A DNA stretch of 64,000 nucleotides from Nitrospirota bacterium (GTDB taxonomy: Bacteria > Nitrospirota > UBA9217), in assembly GCA_963737155.1 (NCBI GenBank), contig CAVTRN010000002.1, forward strand, positions 2,624,001 to 2,688,000, given 5' to 3'. The position numbers were made by a program, and so were the translations under genes. Positions 14,753 to 33,152 of the stretch are shown piece by piece. The first letter of the stretch is position 1; every line of letters begins with the position of its first letter. The notes under the pieces were generated by a model. It searched no databases. It was given only the letters and a program-made list of their open reading frames with translations, and was not told where the DNA came from.

Positions 14753-15457
14753 ATGAGTCCTGCAGGCGCACAAACCATCCGCATTCTCGTTGTTGATGAC
14801 GAACCCGATCTCGTTGAGCTTGTAACATACAACCTCACGCGTGAAGGGCTAAGAGTCTCTTCAGCGCCAGATGCTGAAGAAGCTCTGGATATGATCAAAA
14901 AGGTCGATTTCAGCCTCATCATTCTCGATCGTATGCTTCCCGGCCTCCAGGGGACCGAACTCTGCCGCATCATCAGAAGCAACCCGAAAACGGCATCCAT
15001 CCCAATAATCATGTTAACCGCCAAGGGTGAGGTGGCCGACAAAATTCAAGGTCTCGAAACAGGCGCCGATGATTATATGACTAAACCGTTTAGCCCAAAG
15101 GAGCTCATCGCGCGCGTGAATGCCGTGCTTCGGAGGAGCTCAGACAAGACAACTCGGGAAAATATCATCACCCTCGGGAACCTCCGCATCGACAGGGAGC
15201 GGTATGTTGTTCTCAAAAACAATGTCCCGCTGAACCTCAGTTCGACCGAGTTCAAACTCCTGCTCTATCTTGTTGAACGGAGAGGCAGGGTTTTCAGCCG
15301 GGACCAACTGCTCGACGCAATATGGCAAAACGACACCTTCGTGGAGCCTAGGACAGTCGACGTCCACGTCCGGAGGCTTAGGACACAGATTGAGGACAAC
15401 CCATCAAATCCCACGTACATCAAAACCCGAAGAGGCGTGGGCTATTATGTCGGGTAA
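14753..15457 (+). CDS. phoB: PhoB-like OmpR-family response regulator (copy 1)
   Basis: VVDDE, LDRMLP, GADDYMTKPFSPKEL, SRDQLLD, RTVDVHVRRLR; adjacent to a PhoR-like kinase. Confidence 0.85.
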   Translation: MSPAGAQTIRILVVDDEPDLVELVTYNLTREGLRVSSAPDAEEALDMIKKVDFSLIILDRMLPGLQGTELCRIIRSNPKTASIPIIMLTAKGEVADKIQGLETGADDYMTKPFSPKELIARVNAVLRRSSDKTTRENIITLGNLRIDRERYVVLKNNVPLNLSSTEFKLLLYLVERRGRVFSRDQLLDAIWQNDTFVEPRTVDVHVRRLRTQIEDNPSNPTYIKTRRGVGYYVG

Positions 15458-17207
15458 TCACGCAGAAAACCGCGGCATTTTCAAACGCACATTTATTATC
15501 TACGCTGCTATCCTGCTTCTGGCGGCGATTGCCGTCGAACTGTATATCCCTGATGCGGTCGGTGATAGTTATATTGCCGATCTCCAGAAAAATCTTGTAG
15601 CAGAAGCCAGGCTTATGTCAATCATGCAGCCGTTCAAGGCAACTCCACCACTCGACAATCTCTGCCGTCAATACAAGGAAAAAACAGGTGCAAGGACAAC
15701 AATAATAGCATTTGATGGAAAGGTTCTCGGCGACTCGGACACTGATTCAACCGGCATGGACAACCATGAGCATCGTCAGGAGATTCAGCAGGCAGGACTG
15801 AACGAAACGGGATCGGCTATCCGATTCAGCGACACGCTGAAGCATAATTCTCTATATGTGGCGCTGAAGGTCATGAACGGAAAACAACCGCAGGGCTTCA
15901 TCCGCCTGAGCGTGCCACTCACGGAAGTCGACCGGACCGTTAACCTGCTCAGGGTCAAGATCATCATCGTTTTACTGGTGGTCCTGCTAATGGCAGCCCT
16001 CTTTTCATTCCGGCAGTTAAATCGCGTCAGGAGATTAACAGACCGTATACAAGACTTTACCCGCAATGTCACCCGCGGAGAACTGGGGAAAAAATTTTTT
16101 ATAGAAAGCGCCGGAGAATTTGATGAGATCGCCGATAGCCTAAACAACATGTCCACTGAGCTGCTCAACAGCATCGCCGACAGCGAAGAGGAAAAAAACC
16201 GGCTCAATGTCATTCTCCGAAGCATCCCTGATGCGCTCTTCATCATCGATGCGAAAGGCGTCATTCTCATGGCGAGTTCGGCCGCAAACGATATGTTCGG
16301 AAGTCTCACATTTACGGGCAGGCCGTTCATCGAAGTGGTACGAAATAACGAATTTTTTTCACTGATCGAGCAGGTTCGCGAGCGCCACGAACCAGGGGTG
16401 ACTGAGTTTCCGATCGAGTATCCGGAAGAGCGGTACTGCGTCGTCAGGGTATCGCCGCTTATGTATCGCCGCGAAGACGTCCTGTCCGGCTTTGTGGCCA
16501 TCTTCCACGACATCACTCAATTGAACAAGCTAGAACAGACACGCAAGGATTTCGTCGCCAACATATCTCATGAGCTCAAAACACCGATTACCGCCATCAC
16601 AGGATTCGCGGAAACCCTGCTGGAAGGAGCGCTTGACGACAAACAGCATGCCATAAAATTCCTACAGACCATCAAGGCGAACAGCGAGCGAATTAATGGC
16701 CTCGTAGACGATCTCATGATGATTTCGAAAATCGAATTGGGCGTTATCAAAGTTATGAAAACGTCGGTCCGGTTCGCAGAAGTGGCCGAGAGCGTTCTGG
16801 CCATACTGAAAAACAAGGCCGTGGAAAAGAAACTATCGCTGACAATGTCGGTACAGCAGAACAGGGAGGTCATCCAAGCGGACCGGGATCGGCTTACTCA
16901 GATACTAACCAATCTTGTGGATAACGGGATCAAGTTTACCGAGCGTGGCGGCATCATATTTGGCACCGAAGAGGAGAACGGCAAGACCGTTATTTTCGTG
17001 GCCGACACCGGCATCGGCGTGCCACAGAAAAACCTGCCCCGACTTGGCGAACGGTTCTATCGCGTAGACGCCGGCCGTTCGCGGAACATGGGTGGCACCG
17101 GCCTCGGCCTCGCCATCGTCAAACATCTGGTGAAGGCGCATGGATGGGACTTACAGATCGAGAACAATACAGGGAAAGGGTTAAAGGTCAGGATTATCAT
17201 CCCGTGA
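15447..17207 (+). CDS. phoR: PhoR-like sensor histidine kinase (TM-sensor-TM-HAMP-PAS-HisKA-HATPase)
   Basis: DFVANISHELKTPIT H-box, NLVDNGIKFT, ERFYRVD, GGTGLGLAIVKH; start uncertain. Confidence 0.85.
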   Translation: MSGNHAENRGIFKRTFIIYAAILLLAAIAVELYIPDAVGDSYIADLQKNLVAEARLMSIMQPFKATPPLDNLCRQYKEKTGARTTIIAFDGKVLGDSDTDSTGMDNHEHRQEIQQAGLNETGSAIRFSDTLKHNSLYVALKVMNGKQPQGFIRLSVPLTEVDRTVNLLRVKIIIVLLVVLLMAALFSFRQLNRVRRLTDRIQDFTRNVTRGELGKKFFIESAGEFDEIADSLNNMSTELLNSIADSEEEKNRLNVILRSIPDALFIIDAKGVILMASSAANDMFGSLTFTGRPFIEVVRNNEFFSLIEQVRERHEPGVTEFPIEYPEERYCVVRVSPLMYRREDVLSGFVAIFHDITQLNKLEQTRKDFVANISHELKTPITAITGFAETLLEGALDDKQHAIKFLQTIKANSERINGLVDDLMMISKIELGVIKVMKTSVRFAEVAESVLAILKNKAVEKKLSLTMSVQQNREVIQADRDRLTQILTNLVDNGIKFTERGGIIFGTEEENGKTVIFVADTGIGVPQKNLPRLGERFYRVDAGRSRNMGGTGLGLAIVKHLVKAHGWDLQIENNTGKGLKVRIIIP

Positions 17208-19567: not shown

Positions 19568-20338
19568 TCATCCAACTTTGACAGCAAGATAATCGTAGAG
19601 CGGACGCTGAGGATCGTATATCATCGTGGACCGGTATACAAACCAATAGCCCAACCTCTCAAATGATGATTGTTGTTTCAGGAGATGAGAAACGCCAACA
19701 TCATTTTCCAGGGCCGAGGACAATTCCGAATTTGGCGAGAGCACAATCGGCGGTTGACCCGGTTGGCTCACGATGAGCACAGGAACAATCTGCAGGCCGG
19801 CAGGCGCGAAACCGGCCGCCGCCTGCCGTGCTTCCAGACGCACCATTCGCGCACGTGCTTCCGGCATCCCCGCCTCAATCGCCGTAGACACCCAATCCAG
19901 CAGGCGATTGCGCACATCGGCGATATCATCCGCGCCCGAAATCGCCTGGATACCTTCTTCTTTTTTAATGGCCGATACTAGCGCGGAGACCTCCTTGAGA
20001 TAAGCCACTTTTTGGGAATCAGGCACATAGTACATGACCACCAGGTGAACTTTTTGATCGTCGGGCGAACCATAATCGATCCCTGTAGGGCTCCAACCCA
20101 CCGCGCACCATAATTCTCCCACTCCGGCGGCACGCGTATGCGGGCAGGCCACTCCCAAACCGACCCCGGTGTTTCCCTCTCGCTCTCGAACCAGCACGTC
20201 CTCATCAACCTGAAGATGCCCCCCCAATTCTGGGATACCCTCGATGAGATGCGCAAGGTATCGCAATGATTTTTCTTTATCGCTGTCGGGAAGTTCCACG
20301 AGCCTGCCGTCCTTGAGCGCCGTCAAAAGACTTTTCAT
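19568..20338 (-). CDS. PTS EIIA (fructose/nitrogen-type) domain protein with C-terminal extension
   Basis: REREGNTGVGLGVACPH (phospho-His), GIDYGSPDDQKVHLV; 2 bp downstream of mgtA. Confidence 0.85.
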   Translation of the reverse strand: MKSLLTALKDGRLVELPDSDKEKSLRYLAHLIEGIPELGGHLQVDEDVLVREREGNTGVGLGVACPHTRAAGVGELWCAVGWSPTGIDYGSPDDQKVHLVVMYYVPDSQKVAYLKEVSALVSAIKKEEGIQAISGADDIADVRNRLLDWVSTAIEAGMPEARARMVRLEARQAAAGFAPAGLQIVPVLIVSQPGQPPIVLSPNSELSSALENDVGVSHLLKQQSSFERLGYWFVYRSTMIYDPQRPLYDYLAVKVG

Positions 20339-20340
20339 GC

Positions 20341-22989
20341 TTAATCGCCTCCGAATTTGCGAACAAACCAGGTTTTAACATTGTGCGTCAATGTTACATA
20401 GGCCACGAGCGTCACTGTGAGCCATAGCCAGTACATGGCGGGGAGCCTTACGAAACCAAAATAATCCGCCAGCGGCGAATACGGCAGGATGATTCCCACG
20501 GCCATGACGATGAGCGTGGTCAGCGTCAGGGCGGCGCTGGCCCGGCTCTGAATAAACGGTATTCGATTGGTGCGAATAACATGCACAATGAGCGTCTGGG
20601 TCAGAATTGATTCGACAAACCACCCCGTGTGGAAAAGACTCTCATAGTAGACTTTGGAATTATTCGACACCCCCGGAAGGGAGTAACGCGCGCAGTAAAA
20701 AACAAAAAGCATGAGGGCATAAGTCGTGTAGTCGAATACCGAGCTGGTGGGACCGATATACAGCATGAACCTTTTGATACTGTCAATATTCCAACGGCGG
20801 GGTTTTTCCAAAAATTCGTCGTCCACCTTGTCCGTCGGGATGCCGGACTGGGAAAGATCGTACAGGAGGTTATTTACGAGCACCTGAATCGGGGCCATAG
20901 GAAGAAAAGGCAGGAATAGGCTGGCTCCGACGACACTGAACATATTGCCGAAATTGGAGCTTGCGCCCATTTTAATGTATTTGATGATGTTGCCGAATAC
21001 TTTACGACCCTCTATGGCCCCCTGTTCCAAAACGGAAAGGTCTTTTTCAAGGAGGATGATGTCTGCCGATTCCTTGGCCACATCGACAGCGGTATCCACG
21101 GAAATACCCACATCTGCGGCCCGCATAGCAGGCGCATCATTTATTCCATCCCCCAGAAATCCGACAACATGGCCGCCCCGATGCATGGCGCGAATGAGCT
21201 GCTCTTTCTGAAACGGCGATAAACGGGCAAACACGGTGGATTTTTCCGCTATCTCCGTCAGCTCATCATCGCTGAGGCCGATAAGCTGCGGACCGGTTAC
21301 AATTCCCTCAACTTCCAAGCCAACATCCCGGCACACTTTCCGCGTCACAAGCTCATTGTCCCCAGTGAGTATCTTAGTGGATACACCCACACGACGCAAT
21401 TCCGCCACTGCCTTGAGGGCGGAATCCTTCGGGGGATCAAAGAAGGCGACATAGCCTAAGAGTATCAAACCGGCTTCATTCAGAGCGGAAAATACCTGCT
21501 GGGTCTTGGGAAACTCACAGTACGCTATTGCCAGGACCCGGTATCCGTCCGCGCTCAGAGCCCGATACTCTTCCATTAGATCTTTTTTAAGCATCCCGAT
21601 GAGAGGATGAATTTCTTCATCAACCTGGTAGTGGTCGCAGACAGTGAACATTTCCTCCACTGCTCCCTTACAGATGAGCACATGGGCATCTTCATAATCG
21701 ATGATCACCGACATCCGTTTCCGCGAAAAGTCAAAAGGGATTTCGTCAACCTTCCGGCAGGTACGCTCGACATCAAGTTCTCCGTGTTCGAGGATGGCCC
21801 GGTCTAGCAAGTTGCGCAGGCCTGTCTGGTAATAGCTGTTCAGATATGCATAGCGAAGAACATCATCGCTTTGGCGGTTTGTTACATCGACATATTTTTC
21901 AAGTACGACGCGGTCCTGAGTAAGCGTGCCGGTCTTGTCCGTGCAGAATACGTCCATAGCTCCGAAGTTCTGAATGGCGTTGAGTCTCTTGACGATTACC
22001 TTCTTTCTTGACATCGCGAGCGCCCCTTTGGACAGATTGACCGTCACAATCATAGGGAGCATCTCCGGGGTAAGACCGACGGCTACGGCAAGGCCGAACA
22101 ACAGCGCCTCCATCCAGTTATGTTTCGTGATGCCAATAATGAGGAAAACCACCACCACCATTATGACCATGAAGCGAATCATCAGCCAAGTGAATGCATT
22201 AATTCCCTTGTCAAAATTTGTCAAGACGCGCAGGGAAGCAAGATTCTTTGAAATTGAACCGAAATATGTTCTGTTGCCTGTATTGACCACAAGCCCACGT
22301 GCGGACCCGCTTAGAACGTTGCTCCCCTGAAAGCAGGCATTTATTAATTCCAAAGCGTTCTGAGCGGACTTGGGTGCAGGGGCAGCCATTTTTTCGACAG
22401 GCATCGACTCCCCGGTAAGCACTGACTGGCTTACGAAAAAATCCTTGGTGCTCAGTAGGCGCAAATCGGCCGGAATCATGTCCCCTGCCGCCAGAATAAC
22501 GATATCACCGGGGACCAATTGGTCCATGAGAAGCTCTGTTTCTTTTCCCCCACGCAGCGCGACACAGGTCGTGCGCACCATAGCTTGAAGTTTTTCCACC
22601 GCGCGGCCCGCCCGTGATTCCTGATAGTAACCGAGCCCCACGCTCAGGAGGGCCATAGCGCCGACCATAATCGTCGCTCGGAGATCACCCATGGCGAAGG
22701 AGACCGCTGCGATGGCCAGAAGCTGAACAACAAGAGGGTTTTTACAGCGCTGATAAATTTCTCGAAGAAAACCCATTTTTTTGTGATTGGCAGTTGCATT
22801 CCAGCCGAAGCGTGTCCGCCGGTCATGCACCTCATCGGCGTCCAATCCCTGCTCTGATACGCCGGCCGCCGTAAGAGCCTCCTCCGGAGTGAGAGCACAG
22901 ATAGCGAGAAGATCCTGCTCGCCCTGAGTCATCTCAGTGGGCTTCGCTGTAAATTTTTTAGAAGAGATTTTCTGCATCATAGATAACAT
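20341..22989 (-). CDS. mgtA: Magnesium-translocating P-type ATPase (P3B)
   Basis: TGES, GLTPEMLP, DKTGTLT, PFDFSRKRMS, GDGINDAPA, SSNFGNMFS, NNLLYD; start taken at MLSMMQK (uncertain). Confidence 0.94.
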   Translation of the reverse strand: MLSMMQKISSKKFTAKPTEMTQGEQDLLAICALTPEEALTAAGVSEQGLDADEVHDRRTRFGWNATANHKKMGFLREIYQRCKNPLVVQLLAIAAVSFAMGDLRATIMVGAMALLSVGLGYYQESRAGRAVEKLQAMVRTTCVALRGGKETELLMDQLVPGDIVILAAGDMIPADLRLLSTKDFFVSQSVLTGESMPVEKMAAPAPKSAQNALELINACFQGSNVLSGSARGLVVNTGNRTYFGSISKNLASLRVLTNFDKGINAFTWLMIRFMVIMVVVVFLIIGITKHNWMEALLFGLAVAVGLTPEMLPMIVTVNLSKGALAMSRKKVIVKRLNAIQNFGAMDVFCTDKTGTLTQDRVVLEKYVDVTNRQSDDVLRYAYLNSYYQTGLRNLLDRAILEHGELDVERTCRKVDEIPFDFSRKRMSVIIDYEDAHVLICKGAVEEMFTVCDHYQVDEEIHPLIGMLKKDLMEEYRALSADGYRVLAIAYCEFPKTQQVFSALNEAGLILLGYVAFFDPPKDSALKAVAELRRVGVSTKILTGDNELVTRKVCRDVGLEVEGIVTGPQLIGLSDDELTEIAEKSTVFARLSPFQKEQLIRAMHRGGHVVGFLGDGINDAPAMRAADVGISVDTAVDVAKESADIILLEKDLSVLEQGAIEGRKVFGNIIKYIKMGASSNFGNMFSVVGASLFLPFLPMAPIQVLVNNLLYDLSQSGIPTDKVDDEFLEKPRRWNIDSIKRFMLYIGPTSSVFDYTTYALMLFVFYCARYSLPGVSNNSKVYYESLFHTGWFVESILTQTLIVHVIRTNRIPFIQSRASAALTLTTLIVMAVGIILPYSPLADYFGFVRLPAMYWLWLTVTLVAYVTLTHNVKTWFVRKFGGD

Positions 22990-23418
22990 CCTGAAAATTC
23001 TTGTTAATAAATCCGGATTGGGAACCTGGCGTTTACATGGTAATCTCCAATAATACAATTGTCAATCAGTGAATATCACGCATGCCTACCTGGAATGGAG
23101 TATTATGAAAAAAAACCATATATCACCCCTTACTTATTTGATCAGTCAATACACCGCGGCAAGCTAACGACGGAGTATAGGAGTATAAAGGAAGAGCGTT
23201 CAACTGAGAAACCTGCGGTTTCTCTTACTCTTCCCTCTGTAAAGTAACGCCGTATTGCAAACAACAATTTTAAGGCCAGTTCCTCCCAGGCCGGCCATGC
23301 AGCGTATACATGGTTCTTTCGCGATTACAGATAAATAAAAGAGCGCCGGGGGCAGCTTTCGGTGCTCTATCCTAACTTCCCTCACAAACACTCCCAGCCT
23401 TTTGAGCGGGATGACTAA

Positions 23419-23499: not shown

Positions 23500-23924
23500 A
23501 TGTTAAATGGGTAGTGATTGCAAGTTTGTTAAGTTTAGGTTGGAAAATCGATGGCATGAAATACCGTAAATCCAATGATTTTAAACTATCATCTGCATGC
23601 TTAAAAGGTACGTTAGACTACAGCAAGGCGGTCTACCCATTTGAGATGAGAAAGAACCAAAAAAGATTACATCAGCAGCTGCGATGGGCTCAATTTATTT
23701 TCCTACTCATTCTAATCACCGGAGGTGTCCAAGAATGGATCCGCGATATAGGGTTGAATATGTATGTCCGAATTGTGATAAGTCGTATCAGATTACCTGC
23801 CCGGAGGTCGTGGAATTATGCAGCTGCGGCGCTGAACTACAAAAAGCGTCGTAGAAGCCGGGCAACGAATGCGAGACACGGTCACTTCGTGACAGACAAT
23901 GCGTACCGACGCGACGCAGGTTAG
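23500..23924 (+). pseudogene. Frameshifted hypothetical gene downstream of the Pho-box array
   Basis: SD plus ATG at 23500 hits a stop after 4 codons; adding one base would join it to the 23514 ORF (MLKWVVIASLL...). Confidence 0.35.
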
Positions 23925-23964
23925 TTCCCAGCATCTTTTCTATTAATCAGTAATCCCGCCAGTT

Positions 23965-24222
23965 TTAGAATTCACGGGAACGGCATCTCCTGCCTTCTAT
24001 ATCACAGGGCGACCTTGTGTCTTTTATCAACTCCTTGACTCGTTTGGTGACGAGCGCCGAGAGAAAGTGCTTGTTTCTCGCCGTCTTCATATAGTGTCTG
24101 AGAACCATCGCATAAAGAGTTTTAACGCTTTCCGTGGAATGATTTAGACTCTTCGCCAGATTCTCGACAGCAACCTGATGATTACGTTCCACAGAGTGAT
24201 CAAAAACCATCTTGTTGTTCAT
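23965..24222 (-). CDS. DUF3562-like three-helix-bundle protein (copy 1)
   Basis: AVENLAKSL...VKTLY...ARNKHFLSALVTKRVKELI; SD upstream; paralog at 31760. Confidence 0.75.
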   Translation of the reverse strand: MNNKMVFDHSVERNHQVAVENLAKSLNHSTESVKTLYAMVLRHYMKTARNKHFLSALVTKRVKELIKDTRSPCDIEGRRCRSREF

Positions 24223-24417
24223 GCCGTGCCCCTTCCTTCACTGGCCGGGGCCATCGAGTCTTATTCCGGCTAGTGATTGTAAACAACCGACATCAGAGCG
24301 CTGAATACGCCTTGCGCGGCTCTTGCCATACCCTGCGATATATATACATCGAAAAAACAGCATTTCCTCCGACACAGATATTTCAACATCCTAATAGAAT
24401 TCCGCCCACGCCCCTAT

Positions 24418-24709
24418 TCAGCTTGATCCGACCCTTTTAAGCAGTAGAATCCTTTCCGACGACAAACCCCAACTGATCATGTCTATGACACTCCGTATGT
24501 CGTGGAGCGTGCGGCAACAATAATCCGATACGTTGTCAGTGCCGATCTTGGCAGGATTTCCTTCCATTAGGATCAGCATGCAATCTATGATCAAGAAACA
24601 GGCAGACGCCCAATGAGGATCCCGGCTACTGAATCGACGAACCAGCAATAAGTATAGCGAATTATGAGTGCTGTGCAGATAACGCCTGCAAAGCCGGAGT
24701 ATCGTTCAT
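24418..24709 (-). pseudogene. C-terminal fragment of a CzcD/ZitB-like CDF transporter
   Basis: Fragments AGVICTALIIRYT, WFVDSVAGILIG and ILMEGNP...SVIDMISWGLSSE (cf. VHDLHIW), frameshifted. Confidence 0.6.
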
Positions 24710-24798
24710 GATCTGACTGGTCTCATTTTTTTATTTCACACTACGCCTCGATCCTCAGCATGTCACAACCGCGCTTCTGAACAGCGCCTGACTTGCTG

Positions 24799-25998
24799 CT
24801 ATTCCTTGAGGAGAGCGGCCTTGTCCGTTAACTCCCAAGGGAGACCGATATCCATTCTCCCTACCTGTCCGTAAGCTGCGAGTTTGCGATAAAACCCACC
24901 CTTGACCTGGGACGGCAGATACCGCAGATTGAACTGACGAATGATCCCCGCCAGCCGAAAATCGAAATATTTCTCCACCAGGTCGGCTATCTTTTCATCG
25001 GGCATAACTCCGGTCCCGAAGGTTTCCACCTGCACGCTTACGGGACGCGAAAAACCGATTGAGTAGCTGAGCTGAATTTCGCAGGACGCAGCCAGTCCCG
25101 CCGCAATCACATTTTTCGCCGCATAACGCGCGGCGTAAGCCCCGGTCCGATCAATGCGTGAAGGGTCTTTGCCGGTCAGCGCGGACCCGCTGTGGCGTGA
25201 ATATTCTCCATAGGTATCAATCGCGTTTTTCCTTCCCGTGAGCCCCGAATGCACCGAGGGGCCGCCGTGGATGAAGGTGCCTTCCGGATTAACGAAAATT
25301 CTCGTTTTTTCGTCCGGCTTTATCAACTCGTCCTGGAAAGCCGTATTGATTACTGCCTCCTGGATATCATCAGAGAGCTTTTTCTCATTCGGTCCGCCTT
25401 TCTCCGAAGAGCGTTCCTGGCTTGCAATGACTGTAATGCTGTGAATGCGGGAGGGGCTGCCATTCCGGTATTCAACGCCCACTTGCGTTTTTCCGTCAGG
25501 CGCGAGATAGGGCAAGATTTTCTGGAGCCTTACTGCCGTTAGCCTTCGGGCAAGCCGGTTTGCGAGCCATATGGGAAGAGGCATGAATGCCGATGTCTGA
25601 TTGCAGGCGAAGCCGAAGACTGTAACCTGGTTCCGCACGAGGACCCGTTCGAGCTCGTCCTCCGCCATCGTCCGCTCATCGACAACTCTCCGAACGCTGT
25701 CAGGAAACTCCTTGAGGCTTGTTATTACGCTGCAGGTCTTGGAATTGAACGCCTGTTGATCATATCCGACCTGATTAATGACCTGACGGGCGATATTCGC
25801 GAAGTCGGCCCTGACAGGCGAAGAAAACCGCGCCGCGATAAATACGATGGCCGTTGCAACCGCGCATTCGGCGATAATTTTTGCAAAAGGGTCCTGCTGA
25901 AGGAAATGATCTACGATAGCATCGCTGATGACGTCACACAACTTGTCAGGATGGCCTTCCGTCACCGATTCCGAGGTAAACATGAAATCTTTTTTCAT
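24799..25998 (-). CDS. Divergent methionine adenosyltransferase (MetK-fold) paralog
   Basis: FTSESVTEGHPDK, PDGKTQV, GLTGRK, GKDPSRIDR, AAYG present; GAGDQG and QSPDI signatures absent. Confidence 0.9.
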   Translation of the reverse strand: MKKDFMFTSESVTEGHPDKLCDVISDAIVDHFLQQDPFAKIIAECAVATAIVFIAARFSSPVRADFANIARQVINQVGYDQQAFNSKTCSVITSLKEFPDSVRRVVDERTMAEDELERVLVRNQVTVFGFACNQTSAFMPLPIWLANRLARRLTAVRLQKILPYLAPDGKTQVGVEYRNGSPSRIHSITVIASQERSSEKGGPNEKKLSDDIQEAVINTAFQDELIKPDEKTRIFVNPEGTFIHGGPSVHSGLTGRKNAIDTYGEYSRHSGSALTGKDPSRIDRTGAYAARYAAKNVIAAGLAASCEIQLSYSIGFSRPVSVQVETFGTGVMPDEKIADLVEKYFDFRLAGIIRQFNLRYLPSQVKGGFYRKLAAYGQVGRMDIGLPWELTDKAALLKE

Positions 25999-26163
25999 CT
26001 GAGATTGCCTTTCTCCAGAACTCTTCCCCCCTTGAGGAGGGAAAAATTCAAAGATAATGGTGAAGTCTCTCGAAAGCCGGACAATCTTTGATTTTCATTT
26101 CCCCCATGAACGCCGGTATAAGAGATTAGATGATACCTAATCCTCACTCTGCATTAGGCACGA

Positions 26164-29100
26164 TCACATAACCGCGTCTACCCGGAAGTTTTCCGGCACC
26201 CTGGTCGCGACCGGGGAATCGCTCTCCTTCGTCTGCTTCGTAATAGATCGTGTTTTTGTTCCTTCATTAATGAGAAGCGGCACAATCGCGCTCCCTATTG
26301 CGATTACGGCGTCCACCGGACCCATCGGGCTCAACCCGAGAAACTGGCGAAGGCCCGGGATGAACATGGTCGCAGTCTGGATCCCGAGGGAACCGGCAAG
26401 GGCCGCGGTAAGATACTTGTTCGTTGCAAGCTGGTCAGAACTGAATATGCTGTGGGTTTCGGAACGGCAGCTGATCGCGTGCAAAAGCTGTCCCGTACAG
26501 AGGCTCATGAAGGCCATGCTTCCCGCCTCAGCCCCCTGTCCATATCGTGTGAGTCCATAACCATAGGCCGCCAAGGACCCCGCGGAAATAGTGGAAGCCT
26601 CAAAAAGAATCCGCTTGAAGTCCCCAGATTTGATAATCGGTTCATTCGGATCGCGCGGAGGCCGGGACAGGATATCGGGCTCCGGTGGTTCAAGGGCGAG
26701 CGCCAGTCCGGGGAAAATATCCGAGATCAGGTTAATCCAGAGAAGCTGCATAACATTCAGCGGCTGTCCCATTCCGCCCGCCATCGCGGTAAACATCACT
26801 ATGATTTCGCTCATGTTTGTCGCAAGAAGGAACCGGACTGATTTTCTGATGTTGTTATAGACTGTTCGGCCCTGACTGATAGCGATCACCATGGTTTCAA
26901 GATTATCGTCCTCCAGGACGACATCTGCCACCTCTCTCGCCACATCGGTGCCTGTGTGACCCATGGCAATGCCAATATCGGCCGCTTTGAGCGCTGGTCC
27001 ATCGTTGATGCCGTCGCCAGTCATCGCCACAACCTTACCGGCTGATTGAAGCGCTTGGACGATCTGGAGTTTGTTTGCCGGGCTTACCCGGGCAAAGACT
27101 TGGACCCGTCCCGCAAGAGCCGACAAGACTTCCGGTTCCATCTGAGAAAGGTGGCTCGAATCCAAGATTTCCAGCTCTTCGTCCTTGTTCAGGTTGAGTT
27201 CCTTCCCGATAGCGTAGGCCGTTGTTCCCTGGTCGCCGGTAATCATAACCGTATCAATCCCCGCGCGATGAAAAGTCCCTATGAGGCCCTTTACGCCAGC
27301 GCGCACAACATCCGCCATGCCTACCAGCCCGACCCAGATAAGCCCTTCTTCAAAGTCGTCACCGTGGTTCAGCCCGACCTCATCGCCCAAGGCATAGCAG
27401 ACCGCGAGCACGCGGAGCGCATCACCGGCCATCCGTTCATTTTCCTTGTCCAGCATTTCGCGCGCACGGTCATCAAGAATAAGTCTTTCACCATCCCTGA
27501 GATACCATTTACACAGGGAGAGAACTTCGGAAGGACTTCCCTTGAGAGCCAGCAACCGCTGTCCCTCGTCGGCGCGATGAAGCGTGCTTACGTAAGGACG
27601 GTCTTCCGAGCGATGGTTGATTTTGATCAGCGAGTACTGAGACCGGAGCGCATTGACGTCGATGCCGGCCGCAAGCGCCATGTGCACCAGGGCATTTTCC
27701 GTTGAAGAACCCTGAACCGAATATTCTCCTTCCTGTCTCGATACTGTTGATTCATTGCAGAGAACTGACAGGTGGATAAGGCGGAGAAGTTCATCGTCAG
27801 AGTAGGGATTAACGGTCATACCGTCGGCGGAAATCCTACCGTCGGACACCGTAAAACAGCGCATGCCGGCATGGATCTCGACGACCGACATGCGGTTCAT
27901 GGTAATAGTCCCGGTTTTGTCAAGACAGATGGTCTGAACGGCCCCGAGAGCCTCCACGGCGTCAAGGTGACGAATAAGAACATTCAATTCCCGCATACGC
28001 CTGATTCCGAGCGCCAGCGTTGTCGTCGCTATGGTCGGCAGCCCCTCGGGAACAGCGGCAACAGCGAGTGCAATGGACGTTTTAAGCATTTGGAGAAAAC
28101 CATAGCCGCGCAGCAGTCCGATGATGAACACGATGCCGCATACCGCACCGCTGATGATGACTAGCTGAACGCCCATTCTGTCCATTTGCCGTTCCATGGG
28201 CGTCTCTGGAGGACGCGCTGTCTCCACAAGAGTCTGTATCTTTCCCATCTCCGTATAGCGACCTGTCGCCACAACGACAGCAAGGCCCTGCCCTCCCGTG
28301 ACGAGGGTGCCCATATACACCATGTTGGTTCGATCGCCAAGCGGGATATCGAACGCCTGAAGCTTTTCCCTTGTTTTCATGACCGGCATGCTCTCGCCGG
28401 TCAGCGCCGATTCGTCGACACTAAGATAGTTCAAGTCCAGGAGACGTGCGTCGGCGGCCACATAGCTGCCGGGCCTGAGCACGAGCAGATCTCCCGGCAC
28501 TACATCTTTGGCGTCGATATCCCGTAGTGTATTGCCGCGGATGACCGTTGACACCGGCCGCACAAGGCTCTTTAGCCCGTGAATAGTTTTTTCCGTCTGT
28601 CTTTCAGTCGTATACCCGATTGCGGCATTAATCATAACAACGCCAAGGATCACGGCAGCATCGGCGATACCACCCGTGAAGACGGATATGCCCGCGGCTA
28701 CCCCGAGAAGGCCGACGGGAAGGGATTTGAATTGGCCGAAGAAGATGCTCCACCCTGAGCGGGGCACCGATTCCGGCAAAAGGTTAGGACCGTATTGGGC
28801 TGCGCGCCTCAAAGCGGATTCTTGAGACAGACCTACTGAACTGGAAGCATCCCATTTATGCAAGACCTCTTGCTCTGTCATGCAGTGCCAAAGGTCTTCA
28901 GACTGTCCCTCAGCATGAACGACTTGCGACCTTACTTTTCGCAGGCTCGGATCTTTCCCCGCTGCTTGCGGATATGCCGGAGGCGCAACACCGAGGGCAA
29001 GCCGAGAATCGCGGTTGCGCGTGACAGTCGAACCAGAACCGGCGCGATGCGTCCCTTTCTCTATCCCACCTGCGGGAGAGTCCGTTGGGAGATTTTCAAC

Positions 29101-29328
29101 GATCGCTTTGAGGAGTCCGGCCATGACCGATTCATGATTGCCATTGCCGTTCTTCGTATCGTACAATATGAGAACCGAGCCCGTCAGAGTGTTGACGGAA
29201 ACATTGAGAACCCCTGCATACTGAACAAGACCTTGCTCAATACGCTTTTTCAATGATTCCGAACGATAAAGCCCCCTAACTTTATAACGGACACGCCCTT
29301 TAACCGCGGCATGAACGGTCTCAACCAC
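26164..29328 (-). CDS. Ca2+-type (P2A) cation-transporting P-type ATPase with N-terminal HMA2 domain
   Basis: TGES, VAAVPEGLP, DKTGT, GDGINDGP, TM5 TNMSE, TM6 WINLISD; N-terminus VHAAVKGRVRYK...NTLTGSVLILYD. Confidence 0.92.
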   Translation of the reverse strand: MVETVHAAVKGRVRYKVRGLYRSESLKKRIEQGLVQYAGVLNVSVNTLTGSVLILYDTKNGNGNHESVMAGLLKAIVENLPTDSPAGGIEKGTHRAGSGSTVTRNRDSRLALGVAPPAYPQAAGKDPSLRKVRSQVVHAEGQSEDLWHCMTEQEVLHKWDASSSVGLSQESALRRAAQYGPNLLPESVPRSGWSIFFGQFKSLPVGLLGVAAGISVFTGGIADAAVILGVVMINAAIGYTTERQTEKTIHGLKSLVRPVSTVIRGNTLRDIDAKDVVPGDLLVLRPGSYVAADARLLDLNYLSVDESALTGESMPVMKTREKLQAFDIPLGDRTNMVYMGTLVTGGQGLAVVVATGRYTEMGKIQTLVETARPPETPMERQMDRMGVQLVIISGAVCGIVFIIGLLRGYGFLQMLKTSIALAVAAVPEGLPTIATTTLALGIRRMRELNVLIRHLDAVEALGAVQTICLDKTGTITMNRMSVVEIHAGMRCFTVSDGRISADGMTVNPYSDDELLRLIHLSVLCNESTVSRQEGEYSVQGSSTENALVHMALAAGIDVNALRSQYSLIKINHRSEDRPYVSTLHRADEGQRLLALKGSPSEVLSLCKWYLRDGERLILDDRAREMLDKENERMAGDALRVLAVCYALGDEVGLNHGDDFEEGLIWVGLVGMADVVRAGVKGLIGTFHRAGIDTVMITGDQGTTAYAIGKELNLNKDEELEILDSSHLSQMEPEVLSALAGRVQVFARVSPANKLQIVQALQSAGKVVAMTGDGINDGPALKAADIGIAMGHTGTDVAREVADVVLEDDNLETMVIAISQGRTVYNNIRKSVRFLLATNMSEIIVMFTAMAGGMGQPLNVMQLLWINLISDIFPGLALALEPPEPDILSRPPRDPNEPIIKSGDFKRILFEASTISAGSLAAYGYGLTRYGQGAEAGSMAFMSLCTGQLLHAISCRSETHSIFSSDQLATNKYLTAALAGSLGIQTATMFIPGLRQFLGLSPMGPVDAVIAIGSAIVPLLINEGTKTRSITKQTKESDSPVATRVPENFRVDAVM

Positions 29329-29379
29329 GTATCTCCCCCCTTTCGGACACGAGAACCGATCTGGTGTATGCCACGATTC

Positions 29380-30120
29380 CTACGCGGGAGGCTTGGTTTT
29401 CGGAAGGGCTGTGCTGGCTACCTCCTTTACCCCTTCAACAACGCCGACTAGCATATCCTTTACCGCTTTGACTGCCGTGTTGCCGATCGCTGATGCGGCA
29501 TCAACTGCTCCTGTTACGGCGACCTTAGCCACTTCTTCGGCATTTCCCCCAACTTCCTTCGTGGCTTCAATCACGCCGTCCACAGCCCGACGAGCCACCA
29601 TCGCCACATCTGCGCCGACTTCAGCCGCCCCTTTAACAGCACCCCTAACGGTGGATCCCGCAACAGCGATCACATCGCCGCCCACATCGCTCACGCCCAT
29701 GACCACGCCTTTTGCGACGCTCTTGGTGCTCAAGATCAGGCCAGTGCCGACCTCCTCCGTTGCCTGAATGGCCCCCTTGATCACATCCTTTGTAATAACC
29801 ACCGCCTCGCCGGCAACGCTGCCAGTTGCACGAAGGGCATTGGATACGGTGTTCCGGACAAGGCTCACGATTTCTGCCTCTATCTCATTGATGCCCTTGA
29901 GACTGCTGACGACACCTTCCTTTACCGTAGTCCCCGCCTTGCCGATTTCCTCTGATGATGCCGGATTGCCTGTGGGCTCTGCGCTTGTCATTGGTAAGCC
30001 TCCTGTAATAGTAATATCCTCTGTAGTAGTAATTTCATCCTTTGACGATTGAATGCGCGGCCGTCGTGTCACAGTCGCTTTCCTTTTCGGTTTTTGCTTG
30101 TTGTCATTCATGTCTTTCAT
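29380..30120 (-). CDS. Ala/Val/Gly-rich protein with about eight 22-aa amphipathic repeats
   Basis: SD aggag; repeats such as KGAIQATEEVGTGLILSTKSVA / RGAVKGAAEVGADVAMVARRAV / DGVIEATKEVGGNAEEVAKVAV. Confidence 0.85.
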   Translation of the reverse strand: MKDMNDNKQKPKRKATVTRRPRIQSSKDEITTTEDITITGGLPMTSAEPTGNPASSEEIGKAGTTVKEGVVSSLKGINEIEAEIVSLVRNTVSNALRATGSVAGEAVVITKDVIKGAIQATEEVGTGLILSTKSVAKGVVMGVSDVGGDVIAVAGSTVRGAVKGAAEVGADVAMVARRAVDGVIEATKEVGGNAEEVAKVAVTGAVDAASAIGNTAVKAVKDMLVGVVEGVKEVASTALPKTKPPA

Positions 30121-30297
30121 GTCTTTTCTCCTGGATCAATCCGAAAAAGTAAGGAGGGACTGCAAACACGGTATGCTAAAGACTTCTGAAGGCTTTCTTA
30201 GAAAATGAGAGTAAGTATCACAAGAATGTTTTCGTTAGGATCGAATGGAAAACCCCAACCGACCCCAAGCTCTCAAAAAGGCCATCTGCCCGCTCTG

Positions 30298-30783
30298 CTA
30301 CTTTTCCGGATCTTTCGACTTTAAGAAAATATTGAATGCGTACCACAATGCTCCATACCAAGGGATCGCGCCTGCATTCCCGTTAAGAATCTGAAAGCCA
30401 CCCACTCCTAGCAGCACAACGGTTGCCACACCTCCCATGTTCATTTCGCCATCGGTCAGACTCTTGATCTTGCTATCAATGCCCCTGAACATCTCGGTGA
30501 CATTCTCGTGAAAATTCCCAGAACTCATACCCTTAACATGCGGTTGTTCCCTCAAGACAAAAATATCTTTCGTTCGCGCGTAATCAGCAATGGCGGCAAT
30601 GCTCGTTTGATGCAGCAAAAGTATGCTCCCCGTGGTCGCATTCACCTCCACCGCGGTAATACCGGGGCACTGTGCCAACTGCTCCTTACACACCGCAAGC
30701 GCTCCCCCATCGCCTTTTAAAACGGTGATCTTTACCCGGAACCGTCCCGGCGTGTTATGTGCCACCACTGCATCCCGTATCAT
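30298..30783 (-). CDS. HMA2-domain membrane protein
   Basis: AHNTPGRFRVK...NATTGSILLLH; C-terminal hydrophobic hairpin ending PWYGALWYAF; overlaps the DUF5132 stop codon. Confidence 0.85.
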   Translation of the reverse strand: MIRDAVVAHNTPGRFRVKITVLKGDGGALAVCKEQLAQCPGITAVEVNATTGSILLLHQTSIAAIADYARTKDIFVLREQPHVKGMSSGNFHENVTEMFRGIDSKIKSLTDGEMNMGGVATVVLLGVGGFQILNGNAGAIPWYGALWYAFNIFLKSKDPEK

Positions 30784-31091
30784 GACGCCGGTGACTCATC
30801 CGGCGACGCTGCAACCGCCGCCGTCGCAACCGGTGCTGCAGCGGCAACTGCTGCTTCGGATAGCTCCGCCTTTGCTTCGGCCACAATATCCTCGGTTATT
30901 TCAGCGACCTCGGCAAGAGTTTCCTTGCCGCGCTCATACAGCTGTATTCCTCCCTTGATCGCCGCTTTCGCCAACGGTTTAGCGATATTTGCAAACAAAG
31001 GTATTACGACGGGCGCTAATATTGCAGCCCCTATCCCGATAGCCAAGCCGGTAACCATGTTCCCCTTCAAACCATCGTCTAAAAGTGCCAT
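30780..31091 (-). CDS. DUF5132-like small membrane protein
   Basis: GLAIGIGAAILAP (GxxxG), KPLAKAAIKGG, EDIVAEAKAEL; SD aaggag. Confidence 0.85.
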   Translation of the reverse strand: MALLDDGLKGNMVTGLAIGIGAAILAPVVIPLFANIAKPLAKAAIKGGIQLYERGKETLAEVAEITEDIVAEAKAELSEAAVAAAAPVATAAVAASPDESPAS

Positions 31092-31396
31092 GCTATAATC
31101 TCCTTTCGCTGTAGAAATTGTAGTCTTTTCCTTAAGCCCTGTCTATTTTCTCTTTCATTACATACCTAACTATATCATAAAATGAATGGATCTCTCATTA
31201 TGCCTAGTCGTGAGGAAGAATGTTCGTTCTTTTATTTTACCGATCATTGGCCATAACTGATTGGATAATCAAGAGTATCAGAATGAAAATCACTGGAAAT
31301 GATTGCGCAGTTGGTGCAGCGATCGCTGCGTGAAAAGGGCTACCATCCTTCAACTGTATTTCAGTAAATCTTCCCTACAGGCTGTATTTCTACATA

Positions 31397-31436
31397 TGTC
31401 ACAGACTTTTCTGCATTTTGTAATATTGCTGTAACA
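31397..31436 (+). promoter_or_regulatory. Pho-box-like array
   Basis: TGTCACA 31397, TGTAATA 31419, TGTAACA 31430 (11-bp phase; 31408 is poor), then TATAGT at 31446. Confidence 0.75.
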
Positions 31437-31469
31437 TTGCCATATTATAGTTTTAGAGAAAAGAGTGAG

Positions 31470-31682
31470 GTGAACTTGTATATATCGCAATCAATTCTCA
31501 TCGAAAGTACAAAAGCGGCAGGCGTTCACACGTTCATGTGCCCCTACTGGGCTGCGGAAAGCAGATTCTGTCCAGCATCGATCATGACGGTCGATATCGA
31601 TATGCGTCGAAAGGCACACTATTGCTGTACGGAGAATTACGATTGCTGCCCAATGTTCCTCGCAAAAATTCTTCGAGGGTAG
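31470..31682 (+). CDS. Small Cys-rich hypothetical protein
   Basis: CPYW...FCPAS...YCCTENYDCCPMFL; first ORF after the Pho-box array; start uncertain. Confidence 0.6.
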   Translation: MNLYISQSILIESTKAAGVHTFMCPYWAAESRFCPASIMTVDIDMRRKAHYCCTENYDCCPMFLAKILRG

Positions 31683-32398: not shown

Positions 32399-32441
32399 GA
32401 ATGGATTAGCAAACACGTAAATCTTGTTTTCGAAATACCTT

Positions 32442-33152
32442 ATGAGCTTAGCCGTTGCACAGATAATACGCATACTCGTCGTTGATGACGAACCGGATCT
32501 TGTGGAGCTTGTCACCTATAATCTCACTCAAGACGGGTTTAAAGTCTCTTCTGCGTCGGCTGCCGAGGAGGCCCTTGATAAAATCAAGCAGGGCGGAATA
32601 AGTCTTGTTATACTCGACCTTATGCTTCCGGGCCTCCAAGGCGGGGAACTTTGCCGCATCATTCGAAGTAATCCCAAAACAACGTCTATGCCAATCATCA
32701 TGCTGACCGCCAAAAGCGATGTTACCGACAGAATACAGGGCCTCGAAACGGGCGCCGACGACTATATGACGAAGCCCTTCAGCCCAAAGGAACTCACAGC
32801 CCGCGTAAACGCCGTACTCCGGAGAGTATCCGGCAGGACAACGCATGAAAATGTCCTCACCATAGAAAACCTCAGCATCGACAAGGAACGGTTCGTCGTG
32901 AGCAAAAATAATGTTCCTCTGAGCCTGAGTTCGACCGAGTTCAAGATCCTGCTCTATCTTGTTGAACGGAGAGGCAGGGTGTTTAGCCGCGATCAGCTGC
33001 TCAATGCACTGTGGCAGAATGATACATTCGTTGAATCCAGGACGGTTGATGTTCACATCAGAAGGCTGAGAACGCATATCGAAGACGACCCGTCTCGGCC
33101 CCTATTTGTGAAAACACGGCGGGGTGTTGGATACTATGTTGAGGGGAAATAA
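32442..33152 (+). CDS. phoB: PhoB-like response regulator (copy 2, no adjacent kinase)
   Basis: Closely similar to the 14753 copy: IRILVVDDEPDLVELVTYNLT, GADDYMTKPFSPKEL, RTVDVHIRRLR. Confidence 0.85.
   Translation: MSLAVAQIIRILVVDDEPDLVELVTYNLTQDGFKVSSASAAEEALDKIKQGGISLVILDLMLPGLQGGELCRIIRSNPKTTSMPIIMLTAKSDVTDRIQGLETGADDYMTKPFSPKELTARVNAVLRRVSGRTTHENVLTIENLSIDKERFVVSKNNVPLSLSSTEFKILLYLVERRGRVFSRDQLLNALWQNDTFVESRTVDVHIRRLRTHIEDDPSRPLFVKTRRGVGYYVEGK

Follow-up and report, generated by a model that had tools for sequence, protein, structure and literature searches.

The locus

This report addresses a MetK-like gene and the ion-pump gene beside it in the genome of a Nitrospirota bacterium (lineage UBA9217; NCBI GenBank assembly GCA_963737155.1). 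The stretch of DNA that was analysed, here called the window, covers 64,000 nucleotides (nt) of contig CAVTRN010000002.1, from position 2,624,001 to position 2,688,000 of the forward strand. On its reverse strand lies a run of genes that begins with small membrane and repeat proteins, continues with a P-type ATPase of the P2 type, and leads into the gene of a protein with the fold of MetK, the methionine adenosyltransferase (MAT; EC 2.5.1.6) that makes S-adenosylmethionine (SAM). A small DUF3562-like gene follows downstream. The coordinates are collected in Table 1.

The original prediction, drawn from the letters of the window without database searches, concerned the MetK-like gene by itself. 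The product was said to have lost the residues that bind methionine, to have kept those that bind triphosphate and metal, and not to be a SAM synthetase. The loss of the SAM synthetase role has gained good indirect support. What was missed is the most informative fact about the gene, that it belongs to a two-gene module with a P2-type ATPase carrying an N-terminal CoBaHMA domain.

A MetK fold with a replaced methionine pocket

All three MetK Pfam domains match the MetK-like protein end to end (N-terminal 6e-34, middle 3.5e-35, C-terminal 6.3e-53). Its best solved relatives are all MetK or MAT structures, including 5h9u (4.8e-94) and E. coli 1fug (5.1e-90). A structure model, proposed as a check with the original prediction, was made with AlphaFold2 from a family alignment of 58 rows. 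It has the predicted fold of MetK, with a mean predicted local distance difference test score (pLDDT) of 83.9, a predicted template modelling score (pTM) of 0.85, and template modelling (TM) scores of 0.82-0.86 against solved MetKs.

The residues were compared in a three-way MAFFT alignment of the window protein, E. coli K-12 MetK (NC_000913) and the canonical MetK of the same genome, and are numbered on mature E. coli MetK with the initial Met as 0. The window protein is 43% identical to E. coli MetK, and the canonical MetK of the same genome 62%. In the available part of PMC3853416, H14 is the catalytic acid on the ATP side, F230 stacks on adenine, and D163 and D238 bind the ribose hydroxyls; on the methionine side, D238 and E55 bind the amino group, Q98 and K269 the carboxylate, and I102 the side chain (E55, Q98, K269 and I102 are written with a star). 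These roles agree with the original prediction, which had named E55, Q98, D238 and K269 as methionine ligands.

In the window protein, GGEI is replaced by AARF (E55R), GAGDQG by LVRNQV (D118N), GGPMGD by GGPSVH (D238H), and K269 by arginine, so that these four swaps, first aligned by hand, hold in a formal alignment. Additionally, GGGAFSGKD has become SGSALTGKD; we take this motif and GAGDQG to be signatures of MetK. Q98 is lost as had been claimed, and the phenylalanine named as its substitute is alignment-dependent, standing opposite in MAFFT, whereas HMMER places a gap there when aligning with 5h9u. Retained are H14, D16, K17, E42, D163, K165, F230, R244, K245, K265, D271 and R272, all of which except K17, F230 and R272 had already been listed as kept. 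Relative to MetK, there is also a 7-residue insert near the C-terminus.

Fixation across the family

Relatives were scanned with one genome per species, which gave 218, and the best 80 of these, 69-92% identical, are here called the family. Residue counts refer to 79 members, namely 78 loci and the window. The best 80 come from Nitrospirota, Geobacteraceae, Syntrophorhabdus, a metagenome-assembled genome labelled Myxococcota, Candidatus Loosdrechtia (Planctomycetota), and many Nostocales and other cyanobacteria; the phyla represented are Nitrospirota, Thermodesulfobacteriota, Planctomycetota, Myxococcota and Cyanobacteriota. Among 5.8 billion proteins, more than 120 clusters stand at 74-89% identity to the MetK-like protein, and their names, where given, are SAM synthetase; public sources also call relatives 'methionine adenosyltransferase'. 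A mobile element or a decaying pseudogene was considered and rejected, since the reading frame is intact in all 80 related genome loci.

The replacement of the methionine pocket is fixed. E55R, D238H and K269R are common to all members (79/79), and so are G54A, H189Q, G258S and F262L; a lack of such sharing among syntenic homologs would have counted against the original prediction. T43C occurs in 76 members and G253E in 78, and the position of T227 is D or E in every one. Around GAGDQG the family has G115P/T, A116V (65/79) and G120V/A, with position 117 often R or K, and in the GGGAFSGKD region G260A/S is found throughout (79/79). The Q98 position holds L, S, V or F, and the I102 position is variable across the 79 members.

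The ATP side is kept. H14, D16, K17, E42, D163, K245, K265, D271 and R272 are each present in 79 of 79 members, R244 in 78 and K165 in 76; of the adenosine ligands, D163 is thus universal and F230 is found in 71. Canonical MetK (74 sequences compared) has 79 positions with at least 90% conservation; the family keeps 57 of these and shows a new consensus at 18.

The family also stands apart from canonical MetK. Across 201 Nitrospirota genomes, family matches reach at least 550 bits and at least 60% identity, against at most 343 bits and 47% identity for full-length canonical MetKs. Nothing full-length lies between 343 and 550 bits, and one fragment at a contig end (G038) scores 329.7 bits with 80% identity over residues 216-398. 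In a quick IQ-TREE analysis of 95 rows, the 17 family rows form one clade with a Shimodaira-Hasegawa-like approximate likelihood ratio (SH-aLRT) of 99. This clade is nested in a group of 35 rows sharing H238 and R269, which a branch with support of 98 sets apart from all canonical rows. Branches are 0.04-0.24 in the family versus 0.3-1.0 for canonical rows. Members from Planctomycetota, Geobacter and Syntrophorhabdus nest among those of Nitrospirota in this tree, and the gene has therefore moved between phyla. For the same pairs of genomes, the paralog is 70-76% identical, versus 54-64% for the housekeeping MetK. The remoter members of the H238/R269 group lose K165 (to Q) and F230, and keep H14, D16, K17, E42, R244, K245, K265, R269 and D271. 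Judged from its sequences, the MetK-like clade is large, sharply separated and under strong selection.

The P2-type ATPase gene upstream

The ATPase gene lies directly upstream of the MetK-like gene. Its product matches the Pfam domains E1-E2_ATPase, Cation_ATPase_N, Cation_ATPase_C, Hydrolase and HMA_2 (1.7e-10), the last of which is the CoBaHMA domain. The closest solved relatives are LMCA1 (6zhf, 1.1e-147), SPCA1 and SERCA, with E-values from 1e-147 to 1e-121. In 46 aligned orthologues the motifs TGES, DKTGT, TGD, TGDGxND and PEGL are invariant, as are N838/E841 in transmembrane helix 5 (TM5) and N866/D870 in transmembrane helix 6 (TM6). The N/E pair of TM5 and the N/D pair of TM6 are presumably the Ca2+-type ion-site positions of SERCA. 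Since both catalytic and ion-site motifs are invariant, the CoBaHMA ATPase looks like an active pump.

In tblastn searches, 79 of the 80 genome loci have an orthologue of this ATPase as the immediate same-strand upstream neighbour, and in the remaining locus the contig ends 26 nt before the MetK-like gene. Among 76 gaps between the two genes there are 22 overlaps (18 of exactly 4 nt), 18 gaps of 30 nt or less, 19 of 31-120 nt, and 17 longer ones, the longest being 303 nt. Of the 201 Nitrospirota genomes, exactly the same 31 carry the paralog and an orthologue of the ATPase (at least 57% identity); the two genes are adjacent in all but two of these genomes, where both are placed at contig ends. 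After these orthologues come one ATPase at 45% identity, with a stop, and then generic P2 ATPases at about 37-40%, without a match to the N-terminus. Among 12 metagenome loci of the H238/R269 type (45-75% identical to the window protein, with remoter clade members at 45-62% among them), the ATPase is directly upstream in 10, one locus has no flank, and one is differently arranged. The MetK-like gene and the CoBaHMA P2-type ATPase are a strictly conserved two-gene module, often translationally coupled.

Some variants of the module were also seen. The metagenome locus L099:7490-11497 has the order DUF2656, MetK-like gene (67% identical) and a P-type ATPase relic of 657 amino acids. This relic is without a nucleotide-binding domain and has GSGKTGM in place of DKTGT, so that the catalytic Asp is gone, and it keeps PEGL and the ion-site residues of TM5 and TM6. 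Some genomes have two complete modules, for example Hydrococcus rivularis (L164 and L165; G203), where the second copy is 54% identical in the ATPase and 68% in the MetK-like protein, and likewise in one Nitrospirota genome of the same genus as the source (G151:C19 and C2). In a six-frame search, three ATPase orthologues contain one in-frame stop each (G114:C47 TGA, G178:C62 TGA, G130:C81 TAG); here the CoBaHMA domain may be split, or the stop may come from a frameshift or from faulty assembly.

Long MetK homologues (85 matches) included four with both P-type ATPase and MetK domains (P0286, P0287, P0306, P0370). Each of the four is known from one sequence on one contig, falls short of the combined length of the two proteins, and is indistinguishable from a frameshift or miscall. 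Most other long homologues, of about 780-1240 amino acids, are canonical MetKs interrupted by inteins with LAGLIDADG and intein-splicing domains, and further ones are fused to unrelated domains, such as PF01717 or PF04127/PF02441. A complex prediction with two MetK-like copies and ATPase residues 1-150 (CoBaHMA and linker) gave no answer (score 0.00, mark 0.32) and is evidence neither way. Part of the stretch is found only in soil-metagenome DNA contigs, with shares of at most 0.35, and in no listed RNA data set.

Genuine MAT in the same genomes

A canonical metK, whose presence elsewhere in the genome had been proposed as a check, is found in the source genome (G000:C2:2319005-2319421 region); it is the 385-amino-acid protein compared above. 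Among the 31 paralog-bearing Nitrospirota genomes, a second MetK of canonical type is present in 27 (26 among the matches listed, plus G011), and in the other four PF02773 was found in the paralog only. Two of those four, belonging to one genus, have no bacterial MetK; some 6 kb away from the paralog they encode an AdoMet synthase of archaeal type (PF01941, 537-539 bits). The archaeal-type MAT lies beyond a two-component system (G176:C46:3575-4762; G147:C70:5491-6675; L009:16283-17551). This genus replaced its bacterial MetK despite having the paralog. A true MAT, bacterial or archaeal, is thus present in 29 of the 31 genomes, and both MetK types occur in 5 of 5 genomes of other phyla. Because the methionine ligands are replaced in every family member and a true MAT stands alongside, there is good indirect support for the view that the MetK-like protein has no SAM synthetase role.

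Neighbouring genes

The same-strand run of the window is the arrangement typical of Nitrospirota and Desulfobacterota, in the order DUF5132 protein, CoBaHMA protein with a hydrophobic tail, Ala/Gly/Val-rich repeat protein, ATPase and MetK-like protein. Elsewhere the DUF5132 position is taken by cluster 6 (23 loci). In Nostocales, a fusion of DUF5132 and HMA_2 stands ahead of the ATPase and replaces the separate CoBaHMA protein. The repeat protein matched no Pfam or NCBIfam family. Its nearest neighbours in ESM-Atlas features are unnamed clusters and one automatically named 'Phasin family protein' (0.93, a recognition below the useful level), a weak hint that it may be granule-coat-like.

The genes downstream of the MetK-like gene are variable and include CDF and CorA transporters, DUF3562 proteins, small HMA_2 or HMA proteins and zinc-ribbon proteins. 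Relatives of the small downstream protein of the window (cluster 9, 9.6e-9 for PF12085) occur in the same position as about 20 open reading frames in 16 loci. The MgtA-type ATPase and EIIA-2 pair found downstream of the module in the window recurs only in the nearest relatives, L004 and L007. In several Nitrospirota loci (L021, L023, L024, L025, L033, L040, L041 and L045), the DUF5132 end adjoins PstS-, permease- and ATPase-like genes of a phosphate-type ATP-binding cassette (ABC) transporter. Members of the sCache/HAMP/PAS histidine kinase family are also found close to the module in 8 further loci.

Table 1. Genes in and around the module, with positions within the window (aa, amino acids; PTS, phosphotransferase system)
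Feature	Position	Strand	Remarks
OmpR-type response regulator and sCache/HAMP/PAS histidine kinase	14753-17207	(+)	about 8 kb downstream
MgtA-type Mg2+ P-type ATPase, then PTS EIIA-2-domain protein (256 aa)	19568-23058	(-)	ATPase: TIGR01524, 1117.6 bits
Small DUF3562-like protein, 85 aa	23965..24222	(-)	downstream; PF12085 weak, 4.3e-4, below cut-off
MetK-like paralog, 399 aa	24799..25998	(-)	MetK fold; ATP-side ligands kept, methionine pocket replaced
P2-type P-type ATPase, 1054 aa	26164..29328	(-)	N-terminal CoBaHMA/HMA_2 (residues ~5-60); directly upstream of MetK-like gene
Ala/Gly/Val-rich repeat protein, 246 aa	29380..30120	(-)	upstream of ATPase in Nitrospirota/Desulfobacterota cluster type; cluster 4, 32 loci
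CoBaHMA (HMA_2) protein, 161 aa	30298..30783	(-)	hydrophobic Gly-rich C-terminus; PF19991 2.2e-15; cluster 3, 34 loci
DUF5132 small membrane protein, 103 aa	30780..31091	(-)	first gene of same-strand run; PF17195 3.5e-14
Second OmpR-type regulator	32424-33152	(+)	just upstream of cluster

Comparison with known systems

The closest known protein is MetK itself (E. coli, PDB 1RG9 and 7LL3; Thermus, 5H9U), with which the paralog shares the three-domain fold at the TM scores and identity given above. The triphosphate, Mg2+, K+ and adenosine ligands are all present in the window protein and in 71-79 of 79 family members. The paralog differs in the replacement of E55, Q98, I102, D238 and K269, in the altered GAGDQG and GGGAFSGKD motifs, in its link to a P-type ATPase, and in never being the sole MAT where this is well checkable. 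The partner ATPase shares its catalytic motifs, PEGL and the TM5/TM6 residues with P2A/P2 Ca2+ pumps (LMCA1 6ZHF, SPCA1 8IWP, SERCA1a), and differs from them by the extra N-terminal CoBaHMA domain and the obligate MetK-like neighbour.

The neighbourhood as a whole recalls that of ccyA (calcyanin) in Microcystis. There, according to the available part of bioRxiv 10.1101/2024.07.07.602159, the setting is one of amorphous CaCO3 inside the cell, and a Ca2+/H+ exchanger is flanked by DUF5132 membrane proteins and by CoBaHMA proteins that carry helical hairpins at the C-terminus (see also PMC8890360, likewise in part). In its genes, the window has PF19991 at the ATPase N-terminus and in the separate CoBaHMA protein, PF17195, and a Ca2+-pump-like ATPase, whereas the Microcystis transporter is an exchanger and its marker is calcyanin. 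The terms 'adenosylmethionine', 'MetK' and 'P-type' have 0 occurrences in the available part of the Microcystis text (bioRxiv 10.1101/2024.07.07.602159). A further parallel is the prozyme of AdoMetDC in trypanosomes, in the available part of PMC6221367 also a paralog from the SAM pathway that lost its key function and is under strong selection. The prozyme, however, pairs with its own active paralog, whereas the MetK-like protein is paired with an unrelated pump and has its ATP-side residues intact.

The literature searched, which did not extend to the CoBaHMA family paper (doi 10.1002/prot.26668), describes neither this clade nor any link of a MetK paralog with DUF5132, CoBaHMA or a P-type ATPase, and the MetK-like clade and its ATPase module are apparently undescribed.

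Proposed function and alternatives

The reading that we favour, and regard as probable with ample room for doubt, is that the MetK-derived protein no longer makes SAM and serves as the dedicated partner of a CoBaHMA-domain P2-type Ca2+-ATPase-like pump. In this view the MetK fold persists together with the complete ATP/triphosphate-Mg2+-K+ site, to which the catalytic H14 and the adenosine ligands D163 and F230 belong. With H14, D16, D271, K245, K265, R244 and the adenosine ligands in place, Mg-ATP is probably still bound and cleaved, by C5'-O cleavage and/or by tripolyphosphate hydrolysis. The methionine pocket would have been rebuilt as a mostly basic one (R55, H238, R269 and N118, often with R or K at 117). 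Because the amino-group ligands are now basic (R55, H238), R269 is basic as well, and new acidic residues stand at 227 and 253, the acceptor likely differs from methionine, and would be either a new anion or simply water. A tri/polyphosphatase, or adenosyl transfer to an anionic acceptor, is plausible, and both had been suggested before the ATPase was noticed. Membership of a module with a CoBaHMA-domain P2-type ATPase points away from general metabolism and towards cation transport or storage. The rewired MetK chemistry may thus serve a cation-handling module made of the pump and the DUF5132, CoBaHMA-transmembrane and Ala/Gly/Val-repeat proteins.

A non-catalytic pseudoenzyme would also be compatible with much of this evidence. 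The protein would be a MetK-shaped regulatory or structural subunit of the pump that senses ATP or cations, like dead paralogs that regulate an active partner. Strict co-inheritance with the ATPase, the translational coupling of the genes and the loss of the substrate pocket all agree with such a subunit, and the 70-76% conservation across phyla is expected of a protein with several binding partners. However, the Mg2+, K+ and triphosphate residues and H14 are invariant in 79 of 79 members, which a pure scaffold would not need, and no fused or clearly interacting form was found, the four long ATPase and MetK matches being singletons shorter than the sum. We consider a pseudoenzyme unlikely. A dedicated tripolyphosphatase or polyphosphate-binding enzyme, in which only the second MetK half-reaction is kept and no adenosyl group is transferred, appears distinctly unlikely. 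In its favour, nothing in the wider H238/R269 clade is better conserved than the triphosphate and Mg ligands, the remoter members lose K165 and F230 and keep the triphosphate site, and about 9 Nitrospirota loci have genes of a Pst-type phosphate transporter upstream, but the retention of D163, F230 and K165 in the family argues that a nucleotide is still bound.

Several observations weigh against the favoured reading of a pump partner that has given up SAM synthesis. The chief of them is that no other MAT of either type was found in 2 of the 31 genomes, G123 (89% complete) and G193 (100% by markers, in about 300 contigs). The MetK-like protein scores 365.2 bits against the TIGR01034 metK model, above the cut-off of 309.4, D118N is found in 68 of 79 members with D118 kept in 11, and residual SAM synthesis is still compatible with the sequence, every ATP-side catalytic residue being intact. 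The model of the monomer has its only stretch of pLDDT below 50 at residues 251-276, the triphosphate loop region. On the side of the pump, the gap between the two genes in the window itself is 165 nt, and a scan for promoters and terminators over 23900-31600 gave counts at the level of shuffled sequence (7 against 5.8 expected, and 10 against 7.8 expected) and no operon limits. Furthermore, gene linkage points to shared function, not to physical contact. The high TIGR01034 score, the name given in public sources and the two genomes without another MAT would suit a protein that is still a SAM synthetase, namely a specialised isozyme whose methionine site is changed and which provides SAM locally or in certain ionic conditions. 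Such an isozyme is nevertheless highly improbable, for both amino-group ligands are charge-reversed or replaced in 79 of 79 members (E55R, D238H), Q98 and I102 are lost, a true MAT is present in 29 of 31 and 5 of 5 genomes, and the genus without bacterial MetK has an archaeal-type MAT beside the paralog.

The partnership of a MetK-derived protein with the pump can be carried further, in a joint reading of quite low probability as a whole, in which the MetK-like protein and the CoBaHMA-P2 ATPase would form the enzymatic core of a so far undescribed system by which bacteria sequester cations. Ca2+ or another divalent cation would be pumped into a compartment or onto a patch of membrane, at a site that the DUF5132, CoBaHMA-hairpin and phasin-like repeat proteins organise. 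ATP would be split by the rewired MetK to yield tripolyphosphate/pyrophosphate or an adenosyl-anion product. This product might bind the basic patch of the CoBaHMA domain, or trap and stabilise the cation as an amorphous phase. The module would have spread by transfer across at least five phyla.

Significance

To our knowledge, MetK is treated as a near-universal enzyme with a single housekeeping function. If the new activity is true, the chemistry of the MetK fold would be wider than known, and P-type ATPases would gain a soluble partner of a kind not known before; cation sequestration, if true, would put the MetK reaction to a new use. Annotation pipelines should stop scoring the MetK-like clade as SAM synthetase in metabolic reconstructions. 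Given the connection of CoBaHMA and DUF5132 proteins with the biomineralisation of carbonate inside cells, the MetK-like/ATPase module is a concrete candidate for bacterial cation storage or mineralisation, one that would be genetically testable in cultured Nostocales.

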